64,000 nt of DNA, taken from positions 4,721 through 68,720 of the forward strand of contig CADBYI010000009.1 of the NCBI GenBank assembly GCA_902798825.1, in the 5' to 3' direction. This document shows positions 16,108 to 38,734 of this stretch, piece after piece (position 1 is the first letter of the stretch; each line of letters begins with the position of its first letter). A program made the translations under genes and the position numbers. This DNA comes from an uncultured Eubacteriales bacterium (GTDB taxonomy: Bacteria; Bacillota; Clostridia; Christensenellales; CAG-138). A model generated the notes under the pieces. It had not been told where the DNA came from. It did not search any database and saw only the letters and a list, made by a program, of their open reading frames with translations.

Positions 16108-17118
16108 ATGCAGATCACGATCTACGATATCGCCCGAATGGCGAATGTTTCGGCAAGCACGGTTTCACGGGTGGTGAACAACAAGCCCAACGTGAACCCC
16201 AAGACCCGGGCCCGCATCCTGAAGCTCCTGGCCGAGCACAACTATGTGCCCAACGAAGCCGCCCGGGGGTTGGTCACCCAGAACAGCCACATGATCGGCA
16301 TCCTTCTCACCGACATCCGCACCACCCATCACACCCAGGGCGTCTACTATATCGAGCAGGAACTGAGCCGCCATGGGTATTCCTGCATCATCCACAACAC
16401 GGGCCGGGACGAGCAGAACTGGGTCCACTACATCCAGGAGCTGCGCCAGCGGAAGGTGGAGGCCCTGATCCTCATGGGGTCCATCTACCAGAGCGACACC
16501 ATGAAGGAGGCCATCGCCCTGTATCTGCCGGATCTGCCCGTGGTCATCTGCAACGGCTACTTCTCCGCCCCCAACGTATACGGGATCGTGTCCGACGAGC
16601 AGGGCGGCGTGATGGAGTGCACGGGCCTGCTGCAGCGAACGGGCTGCCGCCGCCCCGCCTTCCTCATGAGCCGGTCCACCCCCAGCAACGAGCTGAAGAA
16701 GCAGGGCTATCTGGACGGCATGGGCCGATACTTTCCGGGCCTTGCCCCCCTGGCCCGGGAGATCGAGCCCGGGGCCGAATCCACCATCGCCGGCACCCGG
16801 GCCCTGCTCGGGGAGCATCCGGACGTGGACGGGATCATCTTCTCCGACGACAACATGGCCATGGTGGGGCTTCGGGCCCTGGTGGACCTTGACAAGCGGG
16901 TGCCCGAGGACGTGCAGGTCATCGGCATCAACAACGCCCCCTTCTCCAGCCTCACCATCCCCTCCCTGACCTCCCTGGACAACATGCTCTACGACGTGTC
17001 CATGACCGCCGTGCGCCACGTGCTGGCCCTGCTTTTGGGCCAGCGGGTCAGCAAGAAGATGTTCATCAGCACCGAGGTGGTGGTCCGCGCGTCCACCCTG
17101 CCCCAGGCTGCATATTGA
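16108..17118 (+). CDS. LacI-family transcriptional regulator
   Basis: The N-terminal HTH is MQITIYDIARMANVSASTVSRVVNNKPNV. The rest is a periplasmic-binding-protein-like sugar-binding core (336 aa). Confidence 0.9.
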   Translation: MQITIYDIARMANVSASTVSRVVNNKPNVNPKTRARILKLLAEHNYVPNEAARGLVTQNSHMIGILLTDIRTTHHTQGVYYIEQELSRHGYSCIIHNTGRDEQNWVHYIQELRQRKVEALILMGSIYQSDTMKEAIALYLPDLPVVICNGYFSAPNVYGIVSDEQGGVMECTGLLQRTGCRRPAFLMSRSTPSNELKKQGYLDGMGRYFPGLAPLAREIEPGAESTIAGTRALLGEHPDVDGIIFSDDNMAMVGLRALVDLDKRVPEDVQVIGINNAPFSSLTIPSLTSLDNMLYDVSMTAVRHVLALLLGQRVSKKMFISTEVVVRASTLPQAAY

Positions 17119-17178
17119 CACAGCCGCCGAAAGGCGGGTATACTCTATTCGATTTTCGATCATCAGGAGGAATTGAAC

Positions 17179-17529
17179 ATGATCCGCAAAGGCAGCGACC
17201 GCATCGTGGAAAAGCCCCAGCGCAAGTTTGGCGCCCCCGGGTTCATCACCGTCCGACAGCTCATCAACGACCCCGCCGAGCTCAACGGCAAGGGCCGGGT
17301 CTTCGCCCACACCACCGTCCTTCCCGGCAACGGCATCGGCTACCACGTGCACGTGGGCGACGCCGAGATCTATTATGTCTACAGCGGCAAGGGCGAATAC
17401 AACGACAACGGCACCATCGTCCCCATCGAGGCCGGGGACGTGACCTTCTGCCCCGCGGGCTCCGGCCACGGGGTCATGTGCGTGGGCGACGAGCCCCTGG
17501 AGCTCATCGCGCTGATCCTGTACGAGTAA
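17179..17529 (+). CDS. Cupin-domain protein
   Basis: ATG 17179 lies 8 nt after AGGAGG. GIGYHVHVGDAEIYYVYSGKGEY...FCPAGSGHGV carries the two cupin His motifs. Confidence 0.8.
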   Translation: MIRKGSDRIVEKPQRKFGAPGFITVRQLINDPAELNGKGRVFAHTTVLPGNGIGYHVHVGDAEIYYVYSGKGEYNDNGTIVPIEAGDVTFCPAGSGHGVMCVGDEPLELIALILYE

Positions 17530-17675: not shown

Positions 17676-18578
17676 TTAAAAATCTCGTTCCATACCCATG
17701 ATGGTCTTGAGCTGATCATGGGTCAGCAGGCCGTCCATGTCATAGGTATTGGTGAAGACGGTGTTCCGGTTGGGGTAGTCCTTGAGGCCGTACTTGAGCA
17801 TGCCGTAGAGGGCGGACTTTTCGAACACGTGCATGGTGACGAAGTTGTACCCCAGCTTCTTCACGTCCTCCAGTTCCACCGCGGGCTTGCCGTCGATCAA
17901 GGTCACGTCGGGCCACATCTTCCAGCCCTTGTCCACCGCCGCCTGCTTCACGCCGTCCGCCAGGACCCGGGTACCGCCCAGCATGGTCATGGGCGCCCCC
18001 AGCTCCCGGGCCAGCTGGCACCGGAGCAGGGCCTCCTCCTCGCCGTAGGCGCTCTTGGCATGGGTCCGGGCGATGCAGACGCAGTCGGTCCCCTCGCAGG
18101 CCGCCAGGGCCGCCTTGATCCGGGCGAGCCAGGCTTCCCGGGAGATGATGACGGTCTCGGGGTGCTTGCGGGCCGGGTTCTCCTCCTGAGGGTTGGCCAT
18201 ATAGTACTCCATCCGCTCGAAACCCCGGATGCCCGTGGCGTCCTCCAAGGTGAAGCCGGAGGCGCCGGCCCGAATGAGCCGCTTCACGTTTCGATAGATG
18301 ACGGCGGGGCTCTCGGCGTAGCCGTCGTCAAAGTCCGCGATCAGGGGGATGTCCACGGCGTTGGTGATGGCCTCCACCACGGTGATGACCTCGTCCAACG
18401 TGCCGAAGGCCATGTCAGGCTGGCCGTCCATGCTGTAGGCAATGGCGCCGCCGGAGAGCATGAGACACTTATAGCCGCTGTTCTGGGCCGCCCGGGCGCT
18501 CATGCAGTCGTACACACAGGGGGCGAAGATCTGTTCGCCGCTTTCAAAAAGCTCCTTGGCCGTTACTTTCCGTTTCAT
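17676..18578 (-). CDS. ICL/PEP-mutase-superfamily protein, paralogue A
   Basis: 300 aa with FAPCVYDCMSARAA, LMLSGG, IPLIADFDDGYAE (D-x-D metal motif) and FTLEDATG. Confidence 0.8.
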   Translation of the reverse strand: MKRKVTAKELFESGEQIFAPCVYDCMSARAAQNSGYKCLMLSGGAIAYSMDGQPDMAFGTLDEVITVVEAITNAVDIPLIADFDDGYAESPAVIYRNVKRLIRAGASGFTLEDATGIRGFERMEYYMANPQEENPARKHPETVIISREAWLARIKAALAACEGTDCVCIARTHAKSAYGEEEALLRCQLARELGAPMTMLGGTRVLADGVKQAAVDKGWKMWPDVTLIDGKPAVELEDVKKLGYNFVTMHVFEKSALYGMLKYGLKDYPNRNTVFTNTYDMDGLLTHDQLKTIMGMERDF

Positions 18579-18594
18579 GCTGCACCTCCCGCTC

Positions 18595-19518
18595 TTAGTC
18601 CCGCTTGAACTGATAGGCCCGCTGGCCCAGGGCGTCTAAATCCATGAATGCCTTCTCCATGGGCATCCACTTCTTCCAATAGCTGAAGATCACGTGGTAG
18701 TCCACCAGGTTCCCCTTCTCGTCCCGCAGATACCCGTCGAAGTCGTGGAGGTCGGCGTACATGGTGTTGCCGTTTCTGAAGTTCTTGATGCCGAAGTCCA
18801 TGTCGCCGAACCAGGCCGCCTGCTCCATGAAGGTCATGAACACCAGGCCGTAGCCCAGGTCCTTCAGTTCCTTGGCCGTGACCTCGGGCTCCCCGTCCAC
18901 AACGGTCAGATCGTTCCAAAGCTTCTCCCCCGGCACCGCCGCGGCAAAGGCCGCCGCGTCCGCCGGTGTGTGGGCGTAGGCCGCGCCTACGATCTCGGCC
19001 CCCGCCGCCTGGGCCAGCTTGACCCGCTCGATAGCCTCCTGGGCCTCCGGGGCAAAGGAACGGGCCAGGATCATGCAGTCGGTATTCTCCGCCGCCTGCT
19101 TCGCGATGGCCACCTTCCGGGCGAACACCTCCCGGGAAACCAGCGTCAGCTCCGGGGAATCCGAGCCGCAGCCATAGGCCCGATCGTCCAGCAGGATGGC
19201 CGCCGCTCCCGCCTTCACGATGCGCTCCAGATCGTAGGGGAGAATGCGCAGATTGTCGGAAAAGCCGCTGCGCACGTCGATGATGAGGGGGATGGAGCAG
19301 TTGTCCTCCACCACCCGGGACACCATCCAAACCATCTCGGCCACGCCCAGGACCCCCTCGTCGGGGATGCCCCGGACCGCGTGGGCAAGGGCGCGGGCGC
19401 TGAAGCGGGCCAGGGTGCAGCCCAGCTTCTCCGCCGCCCGGGTGGAGATGCCGTCCCAGGTATCCGGCGCAAACTGCTGCCCCTGGGCCAGCACGGAACG
19501 TAAAGTCGCGATGCTCAT
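18595..19518 (-). CDS. ICL/PEP-mutase-superfamily protein, paralogue B (degenerate metal motif)
   Basis: Starts at the internal ATG 19518 (MSIATLRSVLAQGQQFAPDTWDGISTRAA). IPLIIDVRSGFSD replaces D-x-D with D-V-R, and ILLDDRAYG is also present. Confidence 0.7.
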   Translation of the reverse strand: MSIATLRSVLAQGQQFAPDTWDGISTRAAEKLGCTLARFSARALAHAVRGIPDEGVLGVAEMVWMVSRVVEDNCSIPLIIDVRSGFSDNLRILPYDLERIVKAGAAAILLDDRAYGCGSDSPELTLVSREVFARKVAIAKQAAENTDCMILARSFAPEAQEAIERVKLAQAAGAEIVGAAYAHTPADAAAFAAAVPGEKLWNDLTVVDGEPEVTAKELKDLGYGLVFMTFMEQAAWFGDMDFGIKNFRNGNTMYADLHDFDGYLRDEKGNLVDYHVIFSYWKKWMPMEKAFMDLDALGQRAYQFKRD

Positions 19519-19584
19519 GTGTGTATATCCCCCCTGCTTTTTTCTGTCGTGGGATCGAGCTTCGACGCCGGAGATACGGGACGA

Positions 19585-19598
19585 TGCAATCGATACCA
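19585..19598. promoter_or_regulatory. LacI-family-type operator (site 2) upstream of ICL/PEPM pair A/B
   Basis: tgcaatcgatacca matches TGNAANCGNTTNCA at 13/14 positions. It shares TGCAATCGAT with site 1. Confidence 0.45.
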
Positions 19599-19720
19599 AC
19601 CTATACGGGTATGGTATCACGGTGCGACAAAAAAAGCAAGCCCCCTCCTGCCTTTTCGGGCTCCCAGGGGTCCGCCCTGCCCCTTCCGTTTTTTCCCTGT
19701 TCCGGCGTTGTAAAAAAATG

Positions 19721-19749
19721 TTGCAAAATTGTGACTACGGTCTTATAAT
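19721..19749 (+). promoter_or_regulatory. Sigma-A-type promoter of the panE-like/ABC/PEPM operon
   Basis: TTGCAA (19721-19726), 17-nt spacer, TATAAT (19744-19749). Confidence 0.6.
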
Positions 19750-19754
19750 GATGT

Positions 19755-19768
19755 TGCAAGCGATTGCA
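19755..19768. promoter_or_regulatory. LacI-family-type operator (site 3) overlapping the transcription start region
   Basis: tgcaagcgattgca matches TGNAANCGNTTNCA at 14/14 positions with palindromic arms TGCAA/TTGCA. It lies 6 nt downstream of the -10 box. Confidence 0.6.
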
Positions 19769-19813
19769 AACAACCCTTCGTTTCGTTCCACCATGAACTG
19801 TACAGGAGGCCAT

Positions 19814-20734
19814 ATGAAGATTGCGGTATTGGGCGCAGGCGCCATGGGGATGCTCTTTGGGGGGTATCTGTCCCAGAAGAACGAGGTCTATCTCATCGAG
19901 GTCAACGAGGATCGGGTCCGGTTCATCAACGAAAACGGGCTCCAGGTCCGGGAGAAGGACGGGAGCGACGGCCGGTACTACCCCAAGGCCGTGTCGAATA
20001 CCGACGGGATCGGTCCCGTGGATTTGATCATCGTCTTCGTGAAGGCCATGTTCACCGTGGACGCCCTGACCAGCAACCGGGGTCTCATCGGGCCGGACAC
20101 CTATATCATGACGTTGCAGAACGGCGCCGGCCACGAGGCGAAGCTGTTGCAGTTCGCCGACGAAAAGCACGTCATCATCGGCTCCACCCAGCACAACAGC
20201 TCCATCATCGAGAACGGCCACGTGAACCACGGCGGCTCCGGCAAGACCAGCATCGGCCTGCCGGGCGGCGGCAGCCAGGTGCTCCAGCCCATCGCGGACG
20301 CCTTCACCGCCTGCGGATTCGAATGCGTCACCAGCAACGAGGTGAAGAAGCAGATCTGGACGAAGCTGTTCACCAACACCGCCGCCAGCTCCCTGACGGC
20401 CGTGCTCCAGGTGCCCCTTGGGTATATCTACAGCGACCCCGCCGCCCACGAGCTCATGATCAAGCTCTGCAAAGAGGCCGTGGCCGTGGCCAACGCGGAG
20501 GGCTTTGCCCGATTCGACGAGGCCGAGGTCATCGCCGGGGTGGAGACCGTCTGCAAGAACGCCCCCAACGGCTACACCTCCATCTATGCGGACGTCCGGG
20601 ACGGCCGAAGGACCGAGGTGGACACCATCAGTGGGAGCGTGGTGGACGCGGCCCATGCCCTAGGCGTGTCCGTGCCCTGCCATGAAATGATCGTATCCCT
20701 TATTCACGCCCTGGAGCGCCGGCCCCGGGCGTGA
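19814..20734 (+). CDS. 2-dehydropantoate 2-reductase-like (PanE/ApbA family) oxidoreductase
   Basis: ATG 19814 follows AGGAGG. MKIAVLGAGAMGMLFGGYL is a Rossmann fold, and the C-terminal block is EVDTISGSVVDAAHALGVSVPCHEMI. Confidence 0.8.
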   Translation: MKIAVLGAGAMGMLFGGYLSQKNEVYLIEVNEDRVRFINENGLQVREKDGSDGRYYPKAVSNTDGIGPVDLIIVFVKAMFTVDALTSNRGLIGPDTYIMTLQNGAGHEAKLLQFADEKHVIIGSTQHNSSIIENGHVNHGGSGKTSIGLPGGGSQVLQPIADAFTACGFECVTSNEVKKQIWTKLFTNTAASSLTAVLQVPLGYIYSDPAAHELMIKLCKEAVAVANAEGFARFDEAEVIAGVETVCKNAPNGYTSIYADVRDGRRTEVDTISGSVVDAAHALGVSVPCHEMIVSLIHALERRPRA

Positions 20735-20793
20735 TTTTGTTTTGCCCATTCCGTAACCATCCGTGACTATATAATAGAAAAGGAGATTTTGTC

Positions 20794-21534
20794 ATGTCAG
20801 ACTACAACTGGGTCGCAGGATACCCCACCCGTCGCCCCCAAGAGATGCCCCCCAAGGAGTACACCCTGGGGAATCTGCACATCGTGGATTTGACCAAGGT
20901 CCTGGACCCCGCCAGCGAGAGCCGTCGCTGCCGTCTGTGGCGGTTCAACACCGGCGGTTCCATCCCGGATTTCCACACCATCATGGACCTGACCAGTCAT
21001 CTGGGCACCCACTGCGAGTGCCCCTATCACCACAGCGAGGATTGGCCCAGCGTGGCGGAGCTGCCCCTGACCAACTTCATGGGCCGGGGCATCTATGTGA
21101 CTCTGGATCTGCCGGAGAATCATCAGATCACCGGTGAGGACCTGGAAAAGGCCATCGGGGACAGGATGCAGCCCGGGGACACGGTCATTCTCGACAGCCC
21201 CCACAAGCTCCCCCCCTTCACCCCCGCCACCAACGGACCCGACGACCATCGGCTCCTGATCGGCGAAGACTCCGCCCGTTGGCTGGCCGCCCGGGGCGCC
21301 AAGTGCGTGGGCTTCGGCGACGGCGTGTCCATCGAGGATTCCAACGAGAACGTGAGGCCCTTCCACGACATCCTCATGGCCCAGAACTGCCTGTTCCTGG
21401 AGGTGCTGCAGAACCTGGACCTTTTGAAGACCGACACCTTCTTCATCAGCTATGCGCCGCTGCCCATCATCGGCCTGGACTCCTGCCCCGTGCGGGTCTA
21501 CGCCATCGAGGGGTTGGGCGAGTTTTCCAAGTAA
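20794..21534 (+). CDS. Cyclase-family (kynurenine-formamidase-like) metal hydrolase
   Basis: SHLGTHCECPYHH is a variant of the HxGTHxDxPxH motif. Length is 246 aa. Confidence 0.65.
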   Translation: MSDYNWVAGYPTRRPQEMPPKEYTLGNLHIVDLTKVLDPASESRRCRLWRFNTGGSIPDFHTIMDLTSHLGTHCECPYHHSEDWPSVAELPLTNFMGRGIYVTLDLPENHQITGEDLEKAIGDRMQPGDTVILDSPHKLPPFTPATNGPDDHRLLIGEDSARWLAARGAKCVGFGDGVSIEDSNENVRPFHDILMAQNCLFLEVLQNLDLLKTDTFFISYAPLPIIGLDSCPVRVYAIEGLGEFSK

Positions 21535-21605
21535 CGTCAGTATCCAACCGGAGATATCCGGATGAACATTTGGGAATACCCCAAAATACAAAGGAGGAAC
21601 GAAAC

Positions 21606-23171
21606 ATGAAAAAGACCCTATCTCTGCTCATCGCTCTGGTGATGGTCCTCAGCTGCTTCGCCTTTGCGAGCACCGCTTCCGCTGAGGAACGCGTCATGGG
21701 CGGCACCGTCACCGGCGCTATGAACGTGGACGTCAACACCTATGCCAGTTGGCGTATCCGCAGCCAGCAGGAGAAGACTGCTCTGTCCCCTGTGTACGAA
21801 ACGCTGATGCGCTTCGATGCCGAAGGCAACCTGCAGCCCTATCTGGCGGAGTCTCTGACGGCTGACCAGGCCAACCTGACCTACACCGTGAAGCTCCGTG
21901 ACGGCATCACCTTCTCCGACGGCTCCAAGCTGGACGGGGACGCCCTGCTCTGGAACTTCGAGAACTTCAAGGAGAATTCTCAGACCTCCGCGACCCACTT
22001 CGGCAGCGTGGATCACTTTGAGAAAACCGACGATCTGACCGTTGTCATCCACCTCAAGGAGTGGAACACCCAGATTCCCTTCTCCCTGAACTCCGTTGCC
22101 GGCCTCATGTACTCCAAGAAGGCCTTTGACGAGAACGGCTACGACTGGTGCCTCGAGCACGCCGTCGGCACCGGCCCCTATGTGATGACCGAGTACATCT
22201 CCGACGATCACAAGACCTATGAGAAGAACCCCACCTACTGGAATGCGGAAGCTGAACCCGCCACCTTCGACAAGATCACGCTGAAGATCATCGCCGACAC
22301 CATGTCCGCTCAGGCTGCTCTGCTCAGCAAAGAAATCGACTTCTATCTGGGCAGCGACAATCAGATGAAGGACACTCTTCAGTCCATGGGCTACAATCTG
22401 TATCACAACAAGATGTGGTACACCATTTACTTCCTGATCTTCGGCAGCGCCGTGGAAGGCTCCCCCCTGGCTGACGTGAAGGTGCGCCAGGCCATCGCCT
22501 ACGCCATCGACTCCGACGCCATCTCCAAGAACCTGGACTACGGCATGTCCTTCGTGTCCAACCAGTACGCCGTGGAGGGGACCCCCTTCTACAGCAGCGA
22601 AGTCAAGGGCTATGAGTACAACGTGGAAAAGGCCAAGCAGCTCCTGGCGGAAGCCGGTTATCCCGATGGCTTCTCCACCAAGATCTCCGTGGGCGTGGAC
22701 CAGAGACTGGACCGCTACATGGTCGCCCTGCAGGGCTATCTGCAGAAGGTGGGCATCACTGTGGAGCTGGATTATCAGGAGACCGCCATCTGGACCTCCA
22801 AGGGCATCTATGAGACCGACGAAGGCATGATCCTGGCCGGCCATGGCTTCGGCGCCAATCTGGTCAACCAGGCTGTGAACAACTTCTCCAAGCGGGCCAT
22901 CTCCGGCGTGGGCATGCTGAAGAACAGCAAGCTCCATCCGGACGATCTGGATGCCGCCCTGATGGCCGCCCTCAGCGCCGCCGACAACGACATCATGCTG
23001 GAGAACATGCATGAGGCCGAGCGCCTGATCATCGACGAGTACTGCCTTGGCTATCCTGTGGTCATGGGCTACGGCGGCGAGATCATCACCCAGCCCGACA
23101 TCATTGACAGCGGCTTCTTCGCCGACTTCAACGAGATGCATACCTGGACCAACCTGTATCGCGTCAAATAA
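21606..23171 (+). CDS. ABC transporter substrate-binding protein, family 5 (peptide/opine/oligosaccharide type)
   Basis: ATG 21606 follows AAGGAGGAA. The signal peptide is MKKTLSLLIALVMVLSCFAFASTASA. The 521-aa protein resembles DppA/OppA. Confidence 0.85.
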   Translation: MKKTLSLLIALVMVLSCFAFASTASAEERVMGGTVTGAMNVDVNTYASWRIRSQQEKTALSPVYETLMRFDAEGNLQPYLAESLTADQANLTYTVKLRDGITFSDGSKLDGDALLWNFENFKENSQTSATHFGSVDHFEKTDDLTVVIHLKEWNTQIPFSLNSVAGLMYSKKAFDENGYDWCLEHAVGTGPYVMTEYISDDHKTYEKNPTYWNAEAEPATFDKITLKIIADTMSAQAALLSKEIDFYLGSDNQMKDTLQSMGYNLYHNKMWYTIYFLIFGSAVEGSPLADVKVRQAIAYAIDSDAISKNLDYGMSFVSNQYAVEGTPFYSSEVKGYEYNVEKAKQLLAEAGYPDGFSTKISVGVDQRLDRYMVALQGYLQKVGITVELDYQETAIWTSKGIYETDEGMILAGHGFGANLVNQAVNNFSKRAISGVGMLKNSKLHPDDLDAALMAALSAADNDIMLENMHEAERLIIDEYCLGYPVVMGYGGEIITQPDIIDSGFFADFNEMHTWTNLYRVK

Positions 23172-23207
23172 GAATCTCGACATGCGTCACCATCCAATGT
23201 GATTCGC

Positions 23208-23240
23208 GGGGGCTCTCCGAGGATCGGAGAGCCCCCTTTT
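23208..23240 (+). terminator. Intra-operon attenuator/terminator after the binding-protein gene
   Basis: 13-bp stem gggggctctccga/tcggagagccccc, loop gga, followed by TTTT. Confidence 0.65.
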
Positions 23241-23273
23241 CACAAAGGACCTTTGCCCATAAGGAGTTAAGAT

Positions 23274-24236
23274 ATGGGATCTTATTTCAAGTTTATAGCT
23301 AAAAAGCTGCTTCTGGCACTGCTGACGATCTTTGCCATTTCCGTGTTTGCCTTTTTGATCGTCCATCTCATGCCCGGCGACCCGGTCCGCGTCATGCTGG
23401 GCGCGGAAGCGGATGAAGCGGCGGTAGAGGCCATGCGAATCCAGCTCCACATGGACCGACCCCTGGTCACGCAATACCTCATATGGATCGGCAACATTTT
23501 CAAGGGGGAGTTTGGCAAATCGCTGGTTCTCAACCTGAGCATCCGCAGCCTGATCGCGGAGCGCTTGCCGGTGACCCTGTCTCTGACCGTGCCCGCCATG
23601 GTCATCTCCATCGTCTTCGGCATCCTGATCGGCATCGTCTGTGCCACGCATCGCGGCTCCTTCATCGATCAGCTTCTCACCGTTTTGATGACGACGATGA
23701 ACGGCGTGCCTGTGTTCTGGATCGGAATCATGCTGATGTACCTGCTGGGCGTGAACTGGAAGATTTTGCCCCTGATGGGGTATGTGAGCCCCAAAGCAGA
23801 TTTTGCGGACTATGTGAAGCACGCCATATTGCCCGTCTTTATCATGTGCTTCGGCCCCATGTCCTCCATCGCGCGACAGGTGCGCACCAATATGCTGGAC
23901 GTGATCAACCAGGATTATATTCGTACCGCCACCGCCTATGGTCTGCCGGTATCGAAGATTCGATATAAATACGCGCTGAAGAACGTGTTGATCCCCGTCA
24001 TCACCCTGATCGCCCTGCAGATCCGCTCCATCGTGGGCGGCTCCCTGCTGGCGGAGCAGGTGTTTTCCATCGCCGGCATCAGCCGGCTCATCACCATGTC
24101 GGTCATGAACAACGACTTTTTGACCGTACAGGCTTTGGTCCTGGTGATTTCAACGTTCGTGGTCGTGGCCAACCTTCTGCTGGATATTGCCTACGGTTTC
24201 GTTGATCCACGCATCCGTCTGACAGGAGGGAAATGA
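23274..24236 (+). CDS. ABC transporter permease (DppB/OppB type)
   Basis: 320 aa. The N-terminus MGSYFKFIAKKLLLALLTIFAISVFAFLIVHLMPGDP is typical of this family. Confidence 0.9.
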   Translation: MGSYFKFIAKKLLLALLTIFAISVFAFLIVHLMPGDPVRVMLGAEADEAAVEAMRIQLHMDRPLVTQYLIWIGNIFKGEFGKSLVLNLSIRSLIAERLPVTLSLTVPAMVISIVFGILIGIVCATHRGSFIDQLLTVLMTTMNGVPVFWIGIMLMYLLGVNWKILPLMGYVSPKADFADYVKHAILPVFIMCFGPMSSIARQVRTNMLDVINQDYIRTATAYGLPVSKIRYKYALKNVLIPVITLIALQIRSIVGGSLLAEQVFSIAGISRLITMSVMNNDFLTVQALVLVISTFVVVANLLLDIAYGFVDPRIRLTGGK

Positions 24237-25099
24237 CCATGACGAAACGATCTATAAAAGTTCAGAGCTTCCTCAAGACCTTCTTCGGCCGTGGCTTTAT
24301 CGTGTATGCAGCCGCCCTCATCGCGCTGATGTTCATCCTGTTCGCCATCTTCGCCGACGTTTTGAGCAAATATGATCCCAACGAGATCGATCTGATGCAG
24401 TCCCTAGCCCTGCCCAGCTCCGAGCATATCTTTGGCTGTGATCTGCACGGCCGGGACGTGTTCGCCCGCATCCTCTACGGCGCGCGCATCTCCATGCTGA
24501 TCAGCGTGTTCTCCTGTATCGTAGGCGCCATTATCGGCATGCTGCTGGGCCTGGTCGCGGGATACCGGGAGGGATTCATCGGCACGCTCATCATGCGGTA
24601 CGTGGATCTGCAGCTGGCCATTCCGCCCATGCTGTTCACCATCATCATCGGCATGCTGGCGGGGCACAACATGTTTGGCCTGGTATTCGCTTTGAGCTTC
24701 GGCATGCTGCCCGGCTTTATCCGGCTGATGTACGGCCTGGTGCTCAGCCTGAAGCAAAACGACTATATCGTGGCGCTGAAGTTTGCCAGGATACCCACAT
24801 GGAAGATCATTCTGGGCCATCTTCTGCCCAACGCGTTCCCCACGATGCTCGTCACCTTCACCATGAACCTGGGGTCCACCATCATGCTGGAATCCACGCT
24901 GAGCTTCCTTGGCATCGGCATACAGCAGCCCACGGCGTCCTGGGGCAGCATGGTTTCAGACGGCTATTCCTACATCTTCACAAGACCATTCCTGGCCTTC
25001 GTTCCGGGCATCTGCATCCTGCTGCTGGTGCTTTCGTTCAACATCCTGGGCGACAGCCTTCGGGATGCGATCGATCCTCGCCTGAAAGGAAAACTGTGA
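24233..25099 (+). CDS. ABC transporter permease (DppC/OppC type)
   Basis: 288 aa. Its start overlaps the upstream stop (ATGA). The C-terminus is FNILGDSLRDAIDPRLK. Confidence 0.9.
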   Translation: MTMTKRSIKVQSFLKTFFGRGFIVYAAALIALMFILFAIFADVLSKYDPNEIDLMQSLALPSSEHIFGCDLHGRDVFARILYGARISMLISVFSCIVGAIIGMLLGLVAGYREGFIGTLIMRYVDLQLAIPPMLFTIIIGMLAGHNMFGLVFALSFGMLPGFIRLMYGLVLSLKQNDYIVALKFARIPTWKIILGHLLPNAFPTMLVTFTMNLGSTIMLESTLSFLGIGIQQPTASWGSMVSDGYSYIFTRPFLAFVPGICILLLVLSFNILGDSLRDAIDPRLKGKL

Positions 25100-25100
25100 T

Positions 25101-26093
25101 ATGGAAAAAGAGAGATTATTGGAATGCACGGATTTGCACACCTCCTTCTTTATGGAGGGAGATCGCGAGGTCAAAGCAGTCAACGGCGTCTCCTACTACA
25201 TAGATAAGGGGGAGGTCGTCGCCGTGGTGGGCGAAAGCGGCTGCGGCAAGTCCGTGACCCAGATGTCCGTGATGCAGCTCATCAAGGCGCCGGGCAAGGT
25301 GCTGTCCGGAAACGTGACCTTCAACGGCGCGCCGCTGATGCAGGACGGAAAGCACGTGGCGGATATGAACAAGATCCGCGGCAACCAGATCGCCATGATC
25401 TTTCAGGAGCCCATGACCTCCCTGAACCCGGTGTTCACCGTGGGCGAGCAGATCGTGGATATCATCCGTCAACACAAAAAGCTCAGCAAGCGGGAAGCGT
25501 GGAAACTGGGCGAAAGCTCTCTGGCGGCCGTGGGCATTCCCGATGCGCCCGCCCGCATGAAGAACTATCCCTTTGAGATGAGCGGCGGTATGCGGCAGCG
25601 GGTGCTCATCGCCTTTGCCGTCGCGCTGGAATCGGAGCTGATCATCGCGGACGAGCCCACCACCGCCCTGGACGTGACCGTTCAGGCTCAGGTCATGGAG
25701 CTGCTGATGGACATCAAGCGCCGGAACAATTCCAGCATCATCGTCGTCACCCACAACCTGGGCCTGGTGTCCCGGTATGCGGACCGCATTTACGTCATGT
25801 ACGCCGGCCGCATCATCGAGTCGGGCACCAAGGAGCAGATACTCACCGATCCCAAGCACCCCTACACCAAGGGACTGCTGGCGGCAGTCCCCAAGCTGGA
25901 GAACAAGAAGCGGGATGCTCTCGTTCCCATCGACGGAGCGCCGCCCAGCCTGGTGGATCTGCCGGATCGCTGCGCATTCTATCCCAGGTGCACCTTCGCC
26001 GACGCAACCTGCGAGAAGCAGGGCTATCCCTGCCTCCGCCCCGTGGGGAAGAATCATTATGCAGCCTGCCATCTGGCCGCGGAGGAGGAGTGA
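25101..26093 (+). CDS. ABC transporter ATP-binding protein (DppD/OppD type)
   Basis: Walker A GESGCGKS, signature MSGGMRQRV, Walker B LIIADEPT, and an oligopeptide C-terminal domain with Cys residues. Confidence 0.9.
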   Translation: MEKERLLECTDLHTSFFMEGDREVKAVNGVSYYIDKGEVVAVVGESGCGKSVTQMSVMQLIKAPGKVLSGNVTFNGAPLMQDGKHVADMNKIRGNQIAMIFQEPMTSLNPVFTVGEQIVDIIRQHKKLSKREAWKLGESSLAAVGIPDAPARMKNYPFEMSGGMRQRVLIAFAVALESELIIADEPTTALDVTVQAQVMELLMDIKRRNNSSIIVVTHNLGLVSRYADRIYVMYAGRIIESGTKEQILTDPKHPYTKGLLAAVPKLENKKRDALVPIDGAPPSLVDLPDRCAFYPRCTFADATCEKQGYPCLRPVGKNHYAACHLAAEEE

Positions 26094-26095
26094 CC

Positions 26096-27106
26096 ATGGA
26101 TGCACAGAACAACATTATCCTCAGCGTACAGGGGCTGAAGGTACACTTCCCCCTGACCAAAGGCATCGCAAAGAAGCAAATCGGCTACGTGCGCGCGGTG
26201 GAGAACATCTCCTTCGATGTGGAACGGGGCAAGACGGTGGGCATCGTGGGGGAAAGCGGCTGCGGCAAGACCACCACGGGCAAGGCCATTTTGCGCATGG
26301 TGAAAGCCACCGAGGGCAGCATCTATCTGAACGGGCAGAACCTGCTGACCATGACGCCCCGTGAGCACGATCAGATCAAGCGAAAGGTTCAGATGATCTT
26401 CCAGGACCCCTACGGTTCCTTGGACCCCCGGCAGAAGGCCAGCTCCATCATTCGTGAAATACTGAGGGAGGATGGGGCCCATCACACGGCCAAGGAGCTG
26501 GACGACGAGGCCCTGCGCCTGCTGACCATGGTGGGCCTTTCGGAGGAGATTGGCGAACGGTATCCCCATGAGATGAGCGGCGGCCAGCGTCAACGGGTGG
26601 GCATCGCCCGGGCTCTTGCCTGCAACCCCGAACTGATCATCTGCGACGAGCCGGTCTCCGCCCTGGACGTTTCTATCCAGGCTCAGATCATCAATCTGTT
26701 GACCAGGCTCCAGAAGGAGCTGGGCCTCACCTACCTGTTCATCGCCCATGATCTGGCGGTGGTGCGGCATATTGCTGACACGGTATACGTGATGTATTTG
26801 GGCCAGTTCGTGGAGAAGATGAGCTCCGACGAGATGTTCAGCTCCCCCCTGCACCCCTATACGAAGGCTCTGCTCTCCGCCATCCCCGTGGTGGACTGCG
26901 AGGTGGAGAAGACGCGCAAGCGCATCGAGCTCTCCGGCGAGGTGCCGAGCCCCATCAACTGCCCCAGCGGCTGCCCCTTCCATCCCCGTTGCCCCTACGC
27001 CACGGATATATGCCGGGAAAAGATGCCGGATAGGGAAGTTGCCTTTGGGGACCATGAGGTGGCTTGCCATCACTATAAGGAACTGCTGCCCGTCAAGCAG
27101 CCATAA
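26096..27106 (+). CDS. ABC transporter ATP-binding protein (DppF/OppF type)
   Basis: ATG 26096. Walker A GESGCGKT, signature MSGGQRQRV, Walker B LIICDEPVSALD, and C-terminal SPINCPSGCPFHPRCPYA. Confidence 0.9.
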   Translation: MDAQNNIILSVQGLKVHFPLTKGIAKKQIGYVRAVENISFDVERGKTVGIVGESGCGKTTTGKAILRMVKATEGSIYLNGQNLLTMTPREHDQIKRKVQMIFQDPYGSLDPRQKASSIIREILREDGAHHTAKELDDEALRLLTMVGLSEEIGERYPHEMSGGQRQRVGIARALACNPELIICDEPVSALDVSIQAQIINLLTRLQKELGLTYLFIAHDLAVVRHIADTVYVMYLGQFVEKMSSDEMFSSPLHPYTKALLSAIPVVDCEVEKTRKRIELSGEVPSPINCPSGCPFHPRCPYATDICREKMPDREVAFGDHEVACHHYKELLPVKQP

Positions 27107-27128
27107 TCTTTCAAGGAGGAAAAACAGT

Positions 27129-28106
27129 ATGCCAGCACAAAAGAGTTTTCAGCAGTTGTTTGCCGAGAAGAAGGAGCTTCTCTGGGCCCCCTGCATCTAT
27201 GACTGCGTCAGCGCCAAGACGGCGGAGGACATCGGCTTCGAGGCTCTGACCATTTCCAGCTATGAGCAGCGGCATTCCTATTTGGGCTTCCCCAGCATGA
27301 CCCAGGATGAAATGTATGTCAGCGCGTCCTATATCCTGCGCTGCTCCAATCTGCCCATTCTGGTGGACGGAGAGGATGGCGGTGGCACGCCCATGGAGGT
27401 CTACAAAAACGTGAAGCGCTTTGCGGAAGCCGGCGCCAAGGCCATCTCCATCGAGGACATGTTCAACGATTCCGCCATCGGCCTTAGGGTGATCGGGGTC
27501 AAGACCTCCGGCAAAACCTACTCCATCCGGGACAGGATCATCCCCAGGGAGATCTGGGCCGCCAACGTGCAGGCGGCGGTGGAGGCCTGTAAGGGCACGG
27601 ACTGCATGGTCATCGCCCGGGTGGATTCCACCGAGACCATGGACCGGGGCCCCATCAAGATGCGGGGCAGGGCCGGCATCTCCTTTGACGAGGCCATCGA
27701 GCGGGCCAAGCTGGGCGTGAAGATGGGCGCCCCCATGACCATGATCCAGAACATATGCTATCCCGGCGGCGACGAGGAATGGAAGCGCATTCAGCGGGAG
27801 GTCCCCGGCTTCCACTGCTATCCCGACATCCACGGCGACAACGGCGTCAGCGATGTGGACGACGTGAGCAAGCTCTACGATCTGGGCTTCCAGATGATCA
27901 CCTGCCACGCCTTCATGAAGGGCGCCTGGAAGGGCATGCTGGAATACGGCCGTCACGTCTTTGAGGATAAGAACACGATCTTCACCGAAAACGACGACTT
28001 CGGCTATCCGATCTATCAGATCAGCCCCATCACCAATCCGGAAATCGCCCAGATGTCCGATCGTTGGGTGAATACCATTTTGACCCTGAAGGGCGAAAAC
28101 AACTGA
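27129..28106 (+). CDS. ICL/PEP-mutase-superfamily protein, paralogue C
   Basis: ATG 27129. WAPCIYDCVSAKTAEDIGF, LPILVDGEDGGG and ISIEDM. Length is 325 aa. Confidence 0.8.
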   Translation: MPAQKSFQQLFAEKKELLWAPCIYDCVSAKTAEDIGFEALTISSYEQRHSYLGFPSMTQDEMYVSASYILRCSNLPILVDGEDGGGTPMEVYKNVKRFAEAGAKAISIEDMFNDSAIGLRVIGVKTSGKTYSIRDRIIPREIWAANVQAAVEACKGTDCMVIARVDSTETMDRGPIKMRGRAGISFDEAIERAKLGVKMGAPMTMIQNICYPGGDEEWKRIQREVPGFHCYPDIHGDNGVSDVDDVSKLYDLGFQMITCHAFMKGAWKGMLEYGRHVFEDKNTIFTENDDFGYPIYQISPITNPEIAQMSDRWVNTILTLKGENN

Positions 28107-28125
28107 ATCCAAGGAGGAAACGAAA

Positions 28126-29076
28126 ATGGCAGCAGAAAAATCGATCAAACAGCTTCTGGAAGCGGGCGAATTTGTCTGGGCGCCCTGCATCTATGATTGC
28201 GTCAGCGCCCGGGTCGTGGAGATGGTTGGCTACAACGCCTGCCTGGTGTCAAGCTGCGAGCTGGAGTTCGCCATGAACGGCATTCCCGCGGGCCTGTATA
28301 ACTGGGAGGAGTATATCTGGGCGGCAGAGCGCATCTGCAACGCCACCAAGCTTCCCGTCATCATGGACGGAGAAAACGGCGGCGGCACGCCCATGCAGGT
28401 CTATCGCAACTGCAAGCGTCTGGCGGAGGCCGGCGTAATGGCCATCTCCATTGAGGACACCCTCTCCGGTGCCGTGGCGGTGGATTACGCCTACGGCCAC
28501 GGCCGCGGGTATATGGACAGGGAGCTGTGGGCCACCAACGTGGCGGCTGCCTGCGACGCCGTGAAGGGCACGGAGTGCATGATCATCGCCCGGACCGACT
28601 GCAAGGGCGGCGGCGCGGCCCAGACCGGCGCCATCGCTGACAACGAGTTTTGCCTGGGGCTGGACGAAGCCATCCTGCGGGCCCAAATGGGCGTTGCGGC
28701 AGGCGCACCCATCACCATGATCCAGAACATCTGCCATGCGGGCTGCAAGGATGAGTGCCTGCGCATTGCGCGGGAGGTTCCGGGATATCACTTTTATCCC
28801 GATGTGCACGCCACCAACGGGGTGCCGGATGCCACCCTGGAGGAGATGCAGGAATGGGGCTTCCAGCTGGTTTCCAACCATGCGGCCATGAAGGGCGCCA
28901 CCAAGGGCATGCTGGAATACTTCAGCAACAACTTCAAAAACCGCAACTCCGTCTACTCTGAAAACGACGAGTTCGGCTTGGGCCACGTGTTCACGCCCTT
29001 CAAGATGGAGAGCTGGATCGAGCGGGATAAGAAGTATATCGCCTACGAAAAGCAGTTGAGACAAGCCCGGAAATAA
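28126..29076 (+). CDS. ICL/PEP-mutase-superfamily protein, paralogue D
   Basis: WAPCIYDCVSARVVEMVGY, LPVIMDGENGGG and ISIEDT. Length is 316 aa. It lies 19 nt after paralogue C. Confidence 0.8.
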   Translation: MAAEKSIKQLLEAGEFVWAPCIYDCVSARVVEMVGYNACLVSSCELEFAMNGIPAGLYNWEEYIWAAERICNATKLPVIMDGENGGGTPMQVYRNCKRLAEAGVMAISIEDTLSGAVAVDYAYGHGRGYMDRELWATNVAAACDAVKGTECMIIARTDCKGGGAAQTGAIADNEFCLGLDEAILRAQMGVAAGAPITMIQNICHAGCKDECLRIAREVPGYHFYPDVHATNGVPDATLEEMQEWGFQLVSNHAAMKGATKGMLEYFSNNFKNRNSVYSENDEFGLGHVFTPFKMESWIERDKKYIAYEKQLRQARK

Positions 29077-29130: not shown

Positions 29131-30300
29131 ATGCGAAACAATCAAAAGCTCAAATCCATCCTGGCGATCCTGGCCATGTCCTTCATCACCCTGGCCGCCT
29201 CCGCCACCTCACCGGCCCTGGCGACGATCTCCAAAAGCTTTCCGGAGGCGTCGCCCACGGCCATCGCCTCCATCGCGACCCTGTCCAGTCTGACGGCGGT
29301 CCCCTGCACCATCCTCTCCGGCATGATCGCCGGACGCCGGGTGCGGTTCAGGACCCTGACCGCCCTCGGGCTCATCGTCACGTTCCTGGGGGGACTGCTG
29401 CCCGTGTTCGCCGGGAGCATCTATGAGATCCTGCTGGGCCGGGCCATCCTGGGCGTGGGCACGGGGCTCATCGCGCCGCTGACCAGCACCCTGGTTTTGT
29501 ATCTGTTCTCCGGGGACGAGGTCCCCAAGCAGCTGGGTCGAAACGCCATGGCCACCAACGTGGGCGCGGTGATCTTCCAGCTGCTGGGCGGGTATCTGTG
29601 CAACTACAGCTGGCGGATGCCGTTTTTGGCGTATCTGGCCATCCTGCCGGTACTGCTCATCGTGATCCTCTGCCTGCCGGAGCCCGAGAAGGGACCGGAG
29701 CAGGCGCGACAGAAGATCCAGCTTCGGCAGGTGGTGACCTTCCACGTGGTGGGCTGGGGCCTGTTCTACGCGGCCCACATGATCTTCTTCTACCCCATCG
29801 TCACGGAGATGTCCGGGATCGTGCTGCACAACGGGTACGGCGACGCCACCATGACCGCCCTGATCCTGTCGGTGATGACGGGCACGGGGGTGCTGGGCGG
29901 GTATCTCTTCTATCCCATCCACCGAAGGTGCGCCCTGATCACCTTCAGCGTGGGCTTCGGCCTCTGCGCCGCCGGGTACGTGCTCATGCTCCTGGCGGGC
30001 AGCGCATGGGGGCTGCTGCTGGCGGCGGCGGTGTTCGGGGTGGGGTACGGCCTGCTGGCGCCCACGTTCACCTACTATCTGGGGGTGCCGCTGAAGCCGG
30101 AGCTGCGGGCCGCGTCCCTTTCCGTGTACCACATCTGCTCCTCCCTGGGCTCCTTCGGCTCCGCCTTCGTGCTGAGCTTCCTGCGGCAGCTGGCGGGCAG
30201 CGGTCAGGAGCGCTTCTCCTTCGGGGTGGGGCTGGCGTTCTATGGGTTGGCCGCGGCGGCCGTCCTGCTTTGTTCCCTGCTGAAGCGGGACCGGGCCTGA
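29131..30300 (+). CDS. MFS transporter
   Basis: 389-aa hydrophobic protein with about 12 predicted helices and an MFS-like G-R-R loop (MIAGRRVRFR). Confidence 0.75.
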   Translation: MRNNQKLKSILAILAMSFITLAASATSPALATISKSFPEASPTAIASIATLSSLTAVPCTILSGMIAGRRVRFRTLTALGLIVTFLGGLLPVFAGSIYEILLGRAILGVGTGLIAPLTSTLVLYLFSGDEVPKQLGRNAMATNVGAVIFQLLGGYLCNYSWRMPFLAYLAILPVLLIVILCLPEPEKGPEQARQKIQLRQVVTFHVVGWGLFYAAHMIFFYPIVTEMSGIVLHNGYGDATMTALILSVMTGTGVLGGYLFYPIHRRCALITFSVGFGLCAAGYVLMLLAGSAWGLLLAAAVFGVGYGLLAPTFTYYLGVPLKPELRAASLSVYHICSSLGSFGSAFVLSFLRQLAGSGQERFSFGVGLAFYGLAAAAVLLCSLLKRDRA

Positions 30301-31768: not shown

Positions 31769-32221
31769 ATGAACTTTGGAACCATCGGCACCGAATACAG
31801 GTATGATTTTACCAATGCGGCCTTTCGGACCGCCTTCGCCTTTTTGAACCGGAACGATCTGGCCAGCCTGCCCGAGGGCTGGGTGGAGCTGGGCAACGGG
31901 GTCCGGGCGGACGTGCAGCGGTACACCACCAGCCCCGCCGGGGAGCTGTCCTTCGAGACCCACGAGAAGTTTTTCGACATCCAGTACCTCATCGAGGGCG
32001 AGGAGTATCTGGGCGTCTGCACCCGCAAGGGCCTCGTGCCCAAGACCGGGTATGAGGCGGCCCGGGACGTGACCTTCTACCATGACCCGGCCCAGGCGGG
32101 CCAGGTGCTGCTCCGGGACGGGGACTACGTGATCTTCGCCCCCGAGGACGCTCATAAGCCCCGTTGTCTGGTGAACGGGGCTATGGAGGTCCGCAAGATC
32201 GTGGTGAAGGTGCCGGTCTGA
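31769..32221 (+). CDS. YhcH/YjgK/YiaL (EbgC-like) family protein
   Basis: 150 aa with HEKFFDIQYLIEGEEYLG and VIFAPEDAHKP, motifs characteristic of this beta-barrel family. Confidence 0.75.
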   Translation: MNFGTIGTEYRYDFTNAAFRTAFAFLNRNDLASLPEGWVELGNGVRADVQRYTTSPAGELSFETHEKFFDIQYLIEGEEYLGVCTRKGLVPKTGYEAARDVTFYHDPAQAGQVLLRDGDYVIFAPEDAHKPRCLVNGAMEVRKIVVKVPV

Positions 32222-34634: not shown

Positions 34635-34637
34635 GAT

Positions 34638-35961: not shown

Positions 35962-35980
35962 AGAAAAGGAGAAAAGTTTT

Positions 35981-38731: not shown

Positions 38732-38734
38732 GCT

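Follow-up and report, generated by a model that had tools for sequence, protein, structure and literature searches.

Four ICL/PEP-mutase-superfamily paralogues in one clostridial locus: a fusion of two conserved cassettes with a proposed role in the catabolism of an imported organic acid

What do four paralogues of a single enzyme superfamily do together around one importer? The question is raised by a 64,000-nucleotide stretch of DNA from an uncultured Eubacteriales bacterium (Christensenellales, CAG-138; contig CADBYI010000009.1, positions 4,721 to 68,720; hereafter, the window), where four proteins of the isocitrate lyase/phosphoenolpyruvate mutase (ICL/PEPM) superfamily, designated A, B, C, and D, are encoded. 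With four members of a rare clade lying inside 11.4 kb, the arrangement cannot be a matter of chance. The answer towards which we lean, with little more than even confidence, is that two copies of one conserved cassette have recombined here into a single unit with a substrate-inducible catabolic role. The cassette itself is real, conserved, and uncharacterised, and its ICL/PEPM proteins form a rare clade of a well-known superfamily with a remodelled active site; nothing describing this gene set was found in the literature and the PDB as searched.

Two separable cassettes and their carriers

The neighbourhood was surveyed with one genome per species, which yielded 29 loci with the D query and 14 with the A query. 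Synteny was derived from tblastn searches with defined queries and from pre-computed gene calls; individual loci are cited below by their survey numbers (L001 and so on). An earlier note, made from the letters of this DNA alone, had proposed a single catabolic or salvage module and had named tight clustering of each paralogue with a characterised enzyme, together with a neighbourhood not conserved in other genomes, as evidence to the contrary. The neighbourhood proved to be conserved in many Clostridia and in Spirochaetales, but what is conserved is not one module: two paralogous cassettes that can also stand apart have been joined in the locus, one of them being found without A and B (L032) and the other without C and D (L038).

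In cassette 1, a small cupin gene and a LacI or GntR regulator accompany the order PanE–cyclase–B–A–SBP5–permease–permease–ATPase–ATPase–MFS–MATE, where PanE is a 2-oxoacid reductase, cyclase is a cyclase-family hydrolase, SBP5 is the family-5 substrate-binding protein (SBP) of an ATP-binding cassette (ABC) importer, and MFS and MATE denote transporters of the major facilitator and the multidrug and toxic compound extrusion families. It is carried by Ruthenibacterium, Hungatella hathewayi DSM 13479, Roseburia, Lachnospiraceae, and Papillibacter, with members missing or displaced in some loci, and its SBP is about 35% identical to that of the window. Cassette 2 has the order PanE–cyclase–SBP5–permease–permease–ATPase–ATPase–C and/or D–MFS–MATE, sometimes extended by a DUF386 gene, and is found in several Clostridiales and in two Spirochaetales metagenome-assembled genomes (MAGs). 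The arrangement in the window is a hybrid of both, in which one PanE–cyclase pair and one importer are shared by the two sets of paralogues.

Both separated forms have been found in close relatives of the window. In L032, whose strain carries a D identical to that of the window, an IclR gene and an RraA-like gene occupy the place upstream of PanE where the window has B and A. L038, from a rumen Christensenellales MAG with the closest A (91% identity), has B–A with the cassette-1 importer and neither C nor D. In another relative, RUG11019, the genes for E (a fifth paralogue type, see below), Amidohydro_2, a Liv-type ABC importer, C, D, an MR_MLE enzyme, B, and A stand in one row.

L032 also bears a peculiar stretch at about 1339–1560. 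Here a second copy of the operator described below precedes some 40 codons similar to the 5′ end of the PanE gene (KIAVLGAG...), and joined to these is sequence similar to the cupin gene at its 3′ end (IVPIEAG). Judging by its sequence, this stretch appears to be a scar that was left when two cassettes recombined or a deletion occurred between them, which would explain why A and B are missing there.

D is the most widespread type. It lies directly downstream of the ABC ATPase genes in all Firmicutes loci and follows a Dpp- or Liv-type ABC importer in about 25 loci. Where the importer is of the Liv type (Peripla_BP_6), D comes directly after it, an E-type gene and Amidohydro_2 are located upstream, and 2-Hacid_dh, GntP, and GntR genes are sometimes present downstream. 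In most loci D occurs without C, either with an E-type partner at a distance or alone.

The smallest versions of the cassette are informative. Hungatella effluvii (L022) has GntR, cupin–ABC–D, while H. hathewayi has GntR, cupin–B–A–ABC–MFS–MATE. PanE and the cyclase, named as parts of the locus in the earlier note, are absent from both and should be regarded as accessory. The most constant companions are instead the small cupin and the LacI/GntR regulator, one or the other type of regulator gene accompanying the cassette in most loci, and the core that is constant across loci consists of the cupin, one or more ICL/PEPM proteins, and the importer. The helpers are interchangeable: PanE or 2-Hacid_dh for 2-oxo/2-hydroxy redox reactions, and a cyclase-family enzyme or Amidohydro_2 for the opening of a lactone, amide, or ring. 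Such swaps of importer (Dpp for Liv) and of helpers (PanE/cyclase for 2-Hacid_dh/Amidohydro_2) round a constant enzyme core are a clear case of cassette evolution. Subdoligranulum and Gemmiger loci have three distinct paralogues with neither reductase nor hydrolase; in these loci (L011–L013, about 2500–3600), a very divergent ICL/PEPM paralogue, 26–28% identical to the E type, is encoded between the E-type gene and that of the Liv-type SBP.

Cultured carriers include H. hathewayi (DSM 13479), H. effluvii (DSM 24995), and [Clostridium] asparagiforme (DSM 15981). Outside the Firmicutes and Spirochaetales, freshwater Pseudomonadota/Gammaproteobacteria MAGs (L007–L010, L024) carry D orthologues about 70% identical to the Firmicutes protein as single genes outside ABC operons; in L009 and L010 the neighbours are unrelated (RmuC, Mg-chelatase-like, PQQ dehydrogenase, AraC). 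At the level of sequence, an identity of about 70% across phyla implies either lateral transfer or very strong constraint. In the plasmid collection, relatives were found on A. vitis-type plasmids and one Sphingopyxis plasmid only.

The genes of the window are listed in Table 1. The earlier note had placed A, B, C, and D exactly as given there, with gaps of 16 nt (A/B) and 19 nt (C/D), and had recognised PanE, the cyclase with its HLGTHCECPYH motif, a complete DppABCDF-type importer, and the MFS transporter. All of these were found as described, the importer consisting of the SBP_bac_5 protein, two permeases, and two oligo_HPY ATPases. Its gene set was right as far as it went and omitted the MATE, DUF386, LacI, and cupin genes, though these belong to the same unit. 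The reading frame of B can be extended to a GTG at 19620, but its orthologues are 307 aa long. L032 and L033, whose genes support several of the assignments, represent near-identical strains. As in the window, the UxaE-like gene adjoins LacI in L001, L030, and L038. Upstream of the UxaE-like gene (12840–14303), a peptidase C69-family dipeptidase is encoded, which is probably unrelated to the cassette because its counterpart is kept in L030 but absent from L031.

Table 1. Genes of the locus in the window, with the evidence for each assignment (positions are those of the window)
Feature	Position	Strand	Basis
UxaE-like gene (tagaturonate/fructuronate epimerase family)	14475..15920	-	PF16257 UxaE on L030/L031 orthologues, 87-88% identical
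LacI-family repressor	16108..17118	+	Pfam LacI HTH, Peripla_BP_1, Peripla_BP_3
Small single-domain metal cupin, TM1287-like	17173..17529	+	Cupin_2, E 1.7e-14
ICL/PEPM paralogue A	17676..18578	-	300 aa; PF13714, 101.7 bits, E 6e-29
ICL/PEPM paralogue B	18595..19518	-	307 aa from ATG; PF13714, 88.5 bits, E 7e-25
PanE/ApbA-family NAD(P)H 2-oxoacid reductase	19814..20734	+	ApbA 116.5 and ApbA_C 115.9 bits, E 1e-33 each
Cyclase-family (PF04199) metal hydrolase	20794..21534	+	Pfam, E 1.9e-15; variant motif HLGTHCECPYHH
Family-5 (Dpp/Opp/Nik-type) substrate-binding lipoprotein	21606..23171	+	SBP_bac_5, E 2e-68
Two ABC permeases	23274-24236, 24233-25099	+	BPD_transp_1 on L032 genes, 100% identical
Two ABC ATPases	25101-26093, 26096-27106	+	ABC_tran and oligo_HPY on L032 genes, 100% identical
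ICL/PEPM paralogue C	27129..28106	+	325 aa; PF13714, 82.4 bits, E 5e-23
ICL/PEPM paralogue D	28126..29076	+	316 aa; PF13714, 94.5 bits, E 1e-26
MFS transporter	29131..30300	+	MFS_1, E 3e-35
MATE transporter	30368..31762	+	PF01554 MatE on L032 gene, 98% identical
DUF386 (YhcH/YiaL-like) gene, directly after MATE	31769..32221	+	PF04074 on L032/L033 gene, same position

A rare ICL/PEPM clade and its active sites

All four paralogues pass the gathering score of PF13714 (PEP_mutase; 31.5 bits) with 82.4–101.7 bits (E 5e-23 to 6e-29), and B, C, and D are 32–34% identical to A. In the NCBIfam search, no curated equivalog cutoff was reached by any of the four. The best model for each was PrpB (TIGR02317, NF008455; 69–98 bits against a cutoff of 354), with the ICL models scoring lower; the PEP mutase model TIGR02320 gave 29–46 bits against an equivalog cutoff of 319.55, and the models for phosphonopyruvate hydrolase (TIGR02321) and CPEP mutase (TIGR02319) gave 29–80 bits against cutoffs of 374 and 420, respectively. 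A alone also matches PF02548 (PanB), at 24.2 bits (E 2.7e-5), which is under the gathering score of 28.7 bits. The best sequence matches in the PDB are the petal death protein (PDP), oxaloacetate acetylhydrolase (OAH), 2,3-dimethylmalate lyase (DML), and PrpB (E 1e-13 to 1e-25); the closest entries are just 17–28% identical, and neither the sequence nor the structure searches of the PDB revealed a close solved relative.

The structure of D predicted by AlphaFold2 (pLDDT 93.6, pTM 0.92) has the TIM-barrel fold of the superfamily. When this model was compared with the PDB by Foldseek, the best 50 matches listed were all ICL/PEPM members (TM-score 0.58–0.76, identity at most 28%), the best structural match having a TM-score of 0.74 and 28% identity. 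On the predicted model, the ICL/PEPM fold of D can be taken as certain.

A neighbour-joining tree, crude and midpoint-rooted, was built from 80 paralogues of the related loci and four reference enzymes. Types A, B, C, and D fall in a single clade apart from PDP, OAH, DML, and 2-methylisocitrate lyase, and the same clade holds the fifth type, E, which comes from related loci and is absent from the window. In terms of sequence space, the A–E clade is rare: when 1.84 billion representative proteins were searched exhaustively with phmmer, E<=1e-30 was reached by no more than 31 clusters and E<=1e-10 by 358. Despite this rarity, single clusters at 90% identity are found on 130–270 contigs each in gut and rumen metagenomes.

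Much of what the earlier note had read from the four sequences holds. None of them clusters with a characterised enzyme, whether by NCBIfam score, by identity to PDB entries, or in the tree; the motif APC[IV]YDC[MV]SA is found in three of the paralogues (A, C, and D) and the motif P-[LIV]-[LIV]-x-D-x-x-x-G in every one of them. The C-terminal tail N-[TS]-[VIM]-[FY]-x4-D-[FM]-[DG], ascribed to all four as a mark of one subfamily, occurs in A, B, and C, but D reads NSVYSENDEFG, with E in place of D. Likewise, the lyase signature K[KR]CGH and the PEP mutase signature EDKx5NS are indeed absent from all four sequences, yet B retains the Cys-Gly of the lyase loop, its RAYGCGSD segment aligning with KKCGH/KRCGH in HMMER.

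The active sites were compared by alignment with orthologues only, and PrpB residue numbers are used here. A keeps the Ser-Gly-Gly oxyanion segment, the PD and DxDDGY motifs, Asp58, Asp85, and Asp87, the [E/D]-D motif (position Glu115 being E or D in the A orthologues), IART, and Arg158; it has no catalytic Cys, Gly replaces Glu188, and RGFER is conserved within a long loop. Of these residues, C and D share Asp85, the ED motif, and Arg158 but lack Asp58, and they have Glu at position 87, Gln-Asn at the position of Glu188, and a conserved Glu directly after the oxyanion-hole Ser (SSCELE in D). C is further marked by the motifs DGEDGG, IED, and IARVDS and a long variable loop, and D by the invariant residues S42, S43, E45, D81, D111, R156, D226, and H252. 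B is built differently. It keeps Arg158 and a conserved G-C-G-S-D loop (GCGSD in 10 of 11 orthologues, GCGAD in the remaining one) and has Ser-Ala-x in place of Ser-Gly-Gly, Asp or Glu at position 85, and an invariant Arg at position 87 (VRSGF), the second metal-Asp position. The B loop, Y/F-G-C-G-S, has neither the Lys nor the His of the lyase loop, and Glu188 is also absent. In all types, Asp replaces Asn210 of the lyases, and a His..Lys pair near strand 8 is common to A, C, D, and E, with Thr at the His position in B.

In the C–C lyases of the superfamily, the Cys/Glu pair protonates the leaving carbanion. As read from the alignments, A, C, and D have lost this Cys123/Glu188 pair and appear to have retained the part of the site predicted to bind Mg2+ and an α-oxo- or α-hydroxy-carboxylate. 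With these lyases (PDP 1zlp, DML 3fa3, OAH 3lye, and PrpB 1mum/6t4v), the paralogues share the fold (for D, TM-score 0.66–0.74 normalised by target and 0.63–0.67 by query), the length class, the N-terminal substrate/oxyanion segment, the metal strand with Asp85, the ED motif, and Arg158. The differences are substantial: in structural alignments D is 17–28% identical to them; K[KR]CGH and Glu188 are absent from A, C, and D, B having only C-G; Asn210 is Asp throughout; and the His..Lys pair, the Gln-Asn, the Glu after the oxyanion hole, and the far longer gating loops of A, C, and D are specific to the clade. The PA4872-type oxaloacetate decarboxylase (3b8i) has the same fold (TM-score 0.67–0.74 to the D model), with sequence similarity confined to the N-terminal third (E 8e-13 to 4e-9). 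Both this decarboxylase and PanB use Mg2+-bound α-oxo-acid enolates without the lyase Cys. By analogy, these Cys-less enzymes may serve as a model for the chemistry of the paralogues, which would then be decarboxylation or an aldol-type reaction.

Regulation and the proposed catabolic role

Upstream of PanE, a near-consensus sigma-70 promoter (TTGCAA-17 nt-TATAAT) and a candidate LacI-type operator form a block at 19717..19768 on the plus strand that is conserved in the alignment with L032 and L038. The candidate operator is the palindromic 14-mer TGCAAGCGATTGCA at 19755–19768, 8 bases past the TATAAT and 46 nt before the PanE ATG, and it is the sole perfect match to the pattern TGCAANCGNTTGCA within the window; the pattern is also present upstream of PanE in L025, L032, L033, and L038. 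Operator-like sites recur in the intergenic region between LacI and the UxaE-like gene, with two mismatches in the window (15938–15951), a perfect match in L038 (12566), and one mismatch in L030 (15688). A weaker copy lies upstream of B in the window (19585–19598), and weaker copies are likewise found in the B-upstream or LacI–UxaE intergenic regions of L038 and L030. This looks like one LacI-type regulon, to which the UxaE-like gene probably belongs. The LacI/GntR regulators and the conserved candidate operator at the PanE promoter fit inducible catabolism, a catabolic or salvage role having been proposed in the earlier note.

The helper proteins can be assigned to families. The PanE-like protein exceeds the cutoff of the subfamily model TIGR00745 (252.6 bits against 141), every equivalog-level NCBIfam model stays under its cutoff, and the best PDB matches are ketopantoate reductases (E 6e-36). 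The cyclase protein matches PF04199 (57.8 bits against a cutoff of 23.1), with Glu replacing Asp of the HxGTHxDxPxH metal motif; the resulting HLGTH[CV]ECPYHH is invariant across 12 cassette-linked copies. It misses the arylformamidase equivalog (41 against 223 bits), and its PDB matches, 1r61 and 8hmo, are metal-dependent hydrolases. The cupin, found in at least 12 related loci spanning both cassette types, has both metal motifs (HVHVGDAE and PAGSGH) in its translation, and its best PDB match is 1o4t (TM1287; E 2.6e-20). An identity as KdgF was rejected for the cupin as unsupported, no KdgF structure being named among the 27 PDB matches at E<=0.01.

The importer is a full five-gene PepT set (SBP_bac_5, two BPD_transp_1, and two ABC_tran with oligo_HPY) and has the same architecture as the Dpp/Opp/Nik systems. 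It differs from them in that the SBP of the window stays under all curated equivalog cutoffs, so that no substrate-specific model is reached, the best curated models being of the NikA and CntA types and far under cutoff; in addition, many relatives use a Liv-type importer instead. The nearest PDB entries of the SBP, 5u4o (an uncharacterised SBP) and NikA, give no ligand clue. An MFS gene follows the cassette in L025, L026, L028, L038, L041, L043, L045, and L046, and MATE after MFS is conserved in both cassette types. The DUF386 gene comes directly after MATE in the window and directly after MFS in the Spirochaetales locus L026 (13580–14035), its position being kept between Clostridiales and Spirochaetales.

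Taken together, these features make it slightly more likely than not that the unit serves the inducible catabolism of an organic acid taken up from outside the cell, probably a sugar-acid-like one, on which the ICL/PEPM proteins would perform Cys-independent Mg-enolate chemistry. The importer would take up the organic acid or its lactone, amide, cyclic, or conjugated form. Where needed, hydrolytic opening would follow, by the cyclase-family enzyme or, in the Liv-type versions, by Amidohydro_2. PanE or 2-Hacid_dh would then interconvert the 2-hydroxy and 2-oxo forms to give an α-oxo acid, and A, C, or D would bind the α-oxo-carboxylate through Mg2+ and carry out Cys-free enolate chemistry, that is, a retro-aldol reaction, a β-decarboxylation, or an isomerisation. 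B, with Arg at a metal-ligand position and the Cys loop kept, might catalyse a different step or act as a partner subunit of A.

As to the substrate, recurrent neighbours hint weakly at a sugar acid or a keto-aldonate-type compound. We lean this way because LacI and GntR(FCD) regulators, MR_MLE, Amidohydro_2, 2-Hacid_dh, and GntP accompany variants of the cassette, because a DUF386/YiaL-like gene is part of it and UxaE is apparently in its regulon, because a 6PGD and LarA-like gene pair recurs, and because IdnD-like, LacI, gluconokinase, and 6PGD genes adjoin homologues elsewhere. In a Papillibacter MAG (L047, 2–2440), the 6PGD and LarA-like pair is fused to the operon of B-like, A, and ABC genes, directly upstream of a homologue of A (55%) and the divergent, B-like protein (37%) with which it is paired. 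In the window, the same pair is located 6.7 kb downstream of D, before UxaC, within a separate operon (33783–40117) of the order SDR–PfkB kinase–6PGD-like–LarA-like (Ni-pincer racemase family)–UxaC, where SDR stands for short-chain dehydrogenase/reductase; a divergent AraC-type regulator gene precedes it. Homologues with IdnD-like, LacI, gluconokinase, and 6PGD genes beside them are encoded on the Sphingopyxis plasmid and by a MAG of the Pseudomonadota; among the MAGs examined from that phylum, L007 alone shows 6PGD, IdnD-like, and LacI genes near the D orthologue. Vitamin C breakdown yields 2,3-diketogulonate, branched 2-carboxy-pentonates, and their lactones (PMC11066805), and it is chemically attractive, if speculative, to think of such products as the substrate.

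Several points weigh against this proposal. The clade has no characterised member, and hence we infer each chemical step. Sugar acids are not usually taken up by importers of the Dpp/Nik or Liv types. Operator-like sites with two mismatches are marginally enriched in the window (6 against 2.3 expected, with at least 6 in 4 of 100 shuffles). The gene content of the Subdoligranulum and Gemmiger loci, with a cupin, three ICL/PEPM proteins, an ABC importer, and MATE only, would suit a small di- or tricarboxylate equally well, and most of the Pseudomonadota D orthologues examined (e.g., L009 and L010) stand alone in an uninformative context. In the Blautia/Lachnospiraceae loci L020, L021, L036, and L037, genes for an SDR, two glycyl-radical enzymes (GREs) of 815 aa, and an old-yellow-enzyme (OYE)-type reductase come after the row E–DppABCDF–D; L021, L036, and L037 have a URO-D-type methyltransferase gene between D and SDR, and the last two of these also have an LpdD-like gene upstream. 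A short contig from the same group (L018) shows D, SDR, and one GRE. Here the unit may be part of a larger pathway island. Finally, on plasmid pAtS4e of Allorhizobium ampelinum S4 (L052, 8250–20112), an A-type gene separates the SBP gene of a Dpp-type operon from the permease genes, and genes for UbiD/UbiX, a LysR regulator, and two amidohydrolases lie together with hutH on the flanks of this A. vitis-type operon.

Competing explanations and significance

How the paralogues work together is a separate question, and the earlier note had opted for heteromers. That A and B form an obligate hetero-oligomer, one catalyst per pair, is possible but somewhat doubtful, and for C and D we rate it lower. 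B is located immediately upstream of A in 11 of 11 loci with B–A orthologues, at spacings from a 4-nt overlap (L043, L044) to the 16 nt of the window, and in the Papillibacter and Oscillospiraceae loci L047 and L048 a divergent B-like gene (36–37%) occupies the B position. The losses in the two proteins are complementary, A having all the metal-site residues without the Cys and B the Cys loop with an Arg at a metal-ligand position, and two or more paralogue types are present in almost all Firmicutes loci. Mixed assemblies are also conceivable on structural grounds, because helices are swapped between the subunits of ICL/PEPM oligomers. However, C–D adjacency is not invariant: D usually occurs without C, is split from its E-type partner by the entire ABC operon, or stands alone (L003, L022). 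Enzymes of consecutive steps would account for tandem paralogues equally well. The gating loop closes on the active site of its own subunit, and all characterised family members are, to our knowledge, homo-oligomers, no heteromeric member of the superfamily being known to us. A still bolder version, in which A/B (perhaps also C/D or E/D) would be the first ICL/PEPM hetero-oligomers, with an Arg in place of a Mg2+ ligand but the Cys loop intact in one subunit, and would catalyse a C–C transformation new to the fold on keto or branched sugar acids, is doubtful; a retro-aldol reaction, a decarboxylation, or a carboxyl migration, for example on vitamin C breakdown products, would then be conceivable. 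If true, it would mean a new catabolic pathway common in gut and rumen Clostridia.

With regard to the substrate, the unusual neighbours in Blautia/Lachnospiraceae raise another explanation, namely, the degradation of a cyclic compound derived from polyphenols or other aromatics, in which PanE would reduce a ring carbonyl, the cyclase would open the ring at a C–C bond, and the ICL/PEPM proteins would cleave the resulting oxo acid. Cyclase-family enzymes catalyse both C–N and C–C hydrolysis, and a reductase and a cyclase-family hydrolase are known to work as a pair: the family includes the retro-Claisen enzyme dihydrophloroglucinol cyclohydrolase, which acts directly after phloroglucinol reductase (PMC10470551). 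As at the present locus, that reductase is encoded near a PF04199 hydrolase in a catabolic cluster of gut Clostridia (PMC10470551), and the URO-D, LpdD-like, GRE, and OYE genes beside D in Blautia/Lachnospiraceae, together with UbiD/UbiX beside the A. vitis plasmid homologue, point the same way. We nevertheless consider this explanation unlikely, and the phloroglucinol pathway is used here solely as an analogy. PanE belongs to a 2-oxoacid reductase family and is not an SDR-type phloroglucinol reductase; the cyclase has the E-variant motif HLGTH[CV]ECPYHH; the BKACE and 3-hydroxyacyl-CoA dehydrogenase genes of the phloroglucinol cluster are missing here, with ICL/PEPM proteins and an ABC importer instead. 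Moreover, the regulators are of the LacI/GntR types, the minimal cassettes do without PanE and the cyclase, and sugar-acid neighbours recur across more lineages.

Catabolism or salvage of pantothenate or pantoate would proceed through import of a pseudo-dipeptide by the Dpp-type system, which carries dipeptide-like molecules, cleavage of the amide by the cyclase (amidases being found in this family), oxidation of pantoate by PanE, which is above the cutoff of the apbA_panE subfamily, and splitting of ketopantoate by a PanB-like enzyme of the same structural superfamily, for which A with its weak Pantoate_transf match might stand. We regard it as very unlikely. The PF02548 match of A does not reach the cutoff, PanE passes no equivalog-level model, PanE and the cyclase are missing from the minimal cassettes and have 2-Hacid_dh and Amidohydro_2 in their place elsewhere, Dpp gives way to Liv-type importers in many loci, and LacI-type regulation and the cupin would be left unexplained.

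A metallophore system, in which the enzymes would synthesise or regenerate a carboxylate chelator, MFS/MATE would export it, and a Nik/Cnt-like ABC importer would bring it back in complex with a metal, is suggested by the NikA/CntA-type models that score best for the SBP, by its matches to NikA structures, and by the combination of an importer with two exporter-type transporters, which resembles the layout of the staphylopine cnt operon. It is highly improbable: LacI/GntR regulators with a LacI-type operator are found in place of a metal-responsive regulator, nicotianamine-synthase-like and opine-dehydrogenase genes are absent, Liv-type importers stand in for Dpp in many loci, and the cupin/PEPM core often occurs without exporters. 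Phosphonate metabolism, with at least one paralogue acting as a PEP mutase or phosphonopyruvate hydrolase as the Pfam family name and weak matches of 29–50 bits might suggest, is close to refuted, given scores far under the cutoffs of 320–374 bits, the missing EDKx5NS in all four paralogues, and the lack of phosphonopyruvate decarboxylase, phn, and aminotransferase partner genes in any of the loci examined.

The catabolism of an imported, probably sugar-acid-like compound by a twofold cassette is, by our weighing, the reading narrowly preferred here, and its interest extends beyond the window. The ICL/PEP-mutase fold is a classic scaffold for the evolution of C–C and P–C chemistry, and a rare clade whose active site has been rebuilt would extend it by a new reaction type or, at the least, a new specificity class. 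Given its abundance in the metagenomes of gut and rumen and its presence in cultured strains, the cassette would mark a route of nutrient use by the gut microbiota that has gone unrecognised and is open to direct tests.

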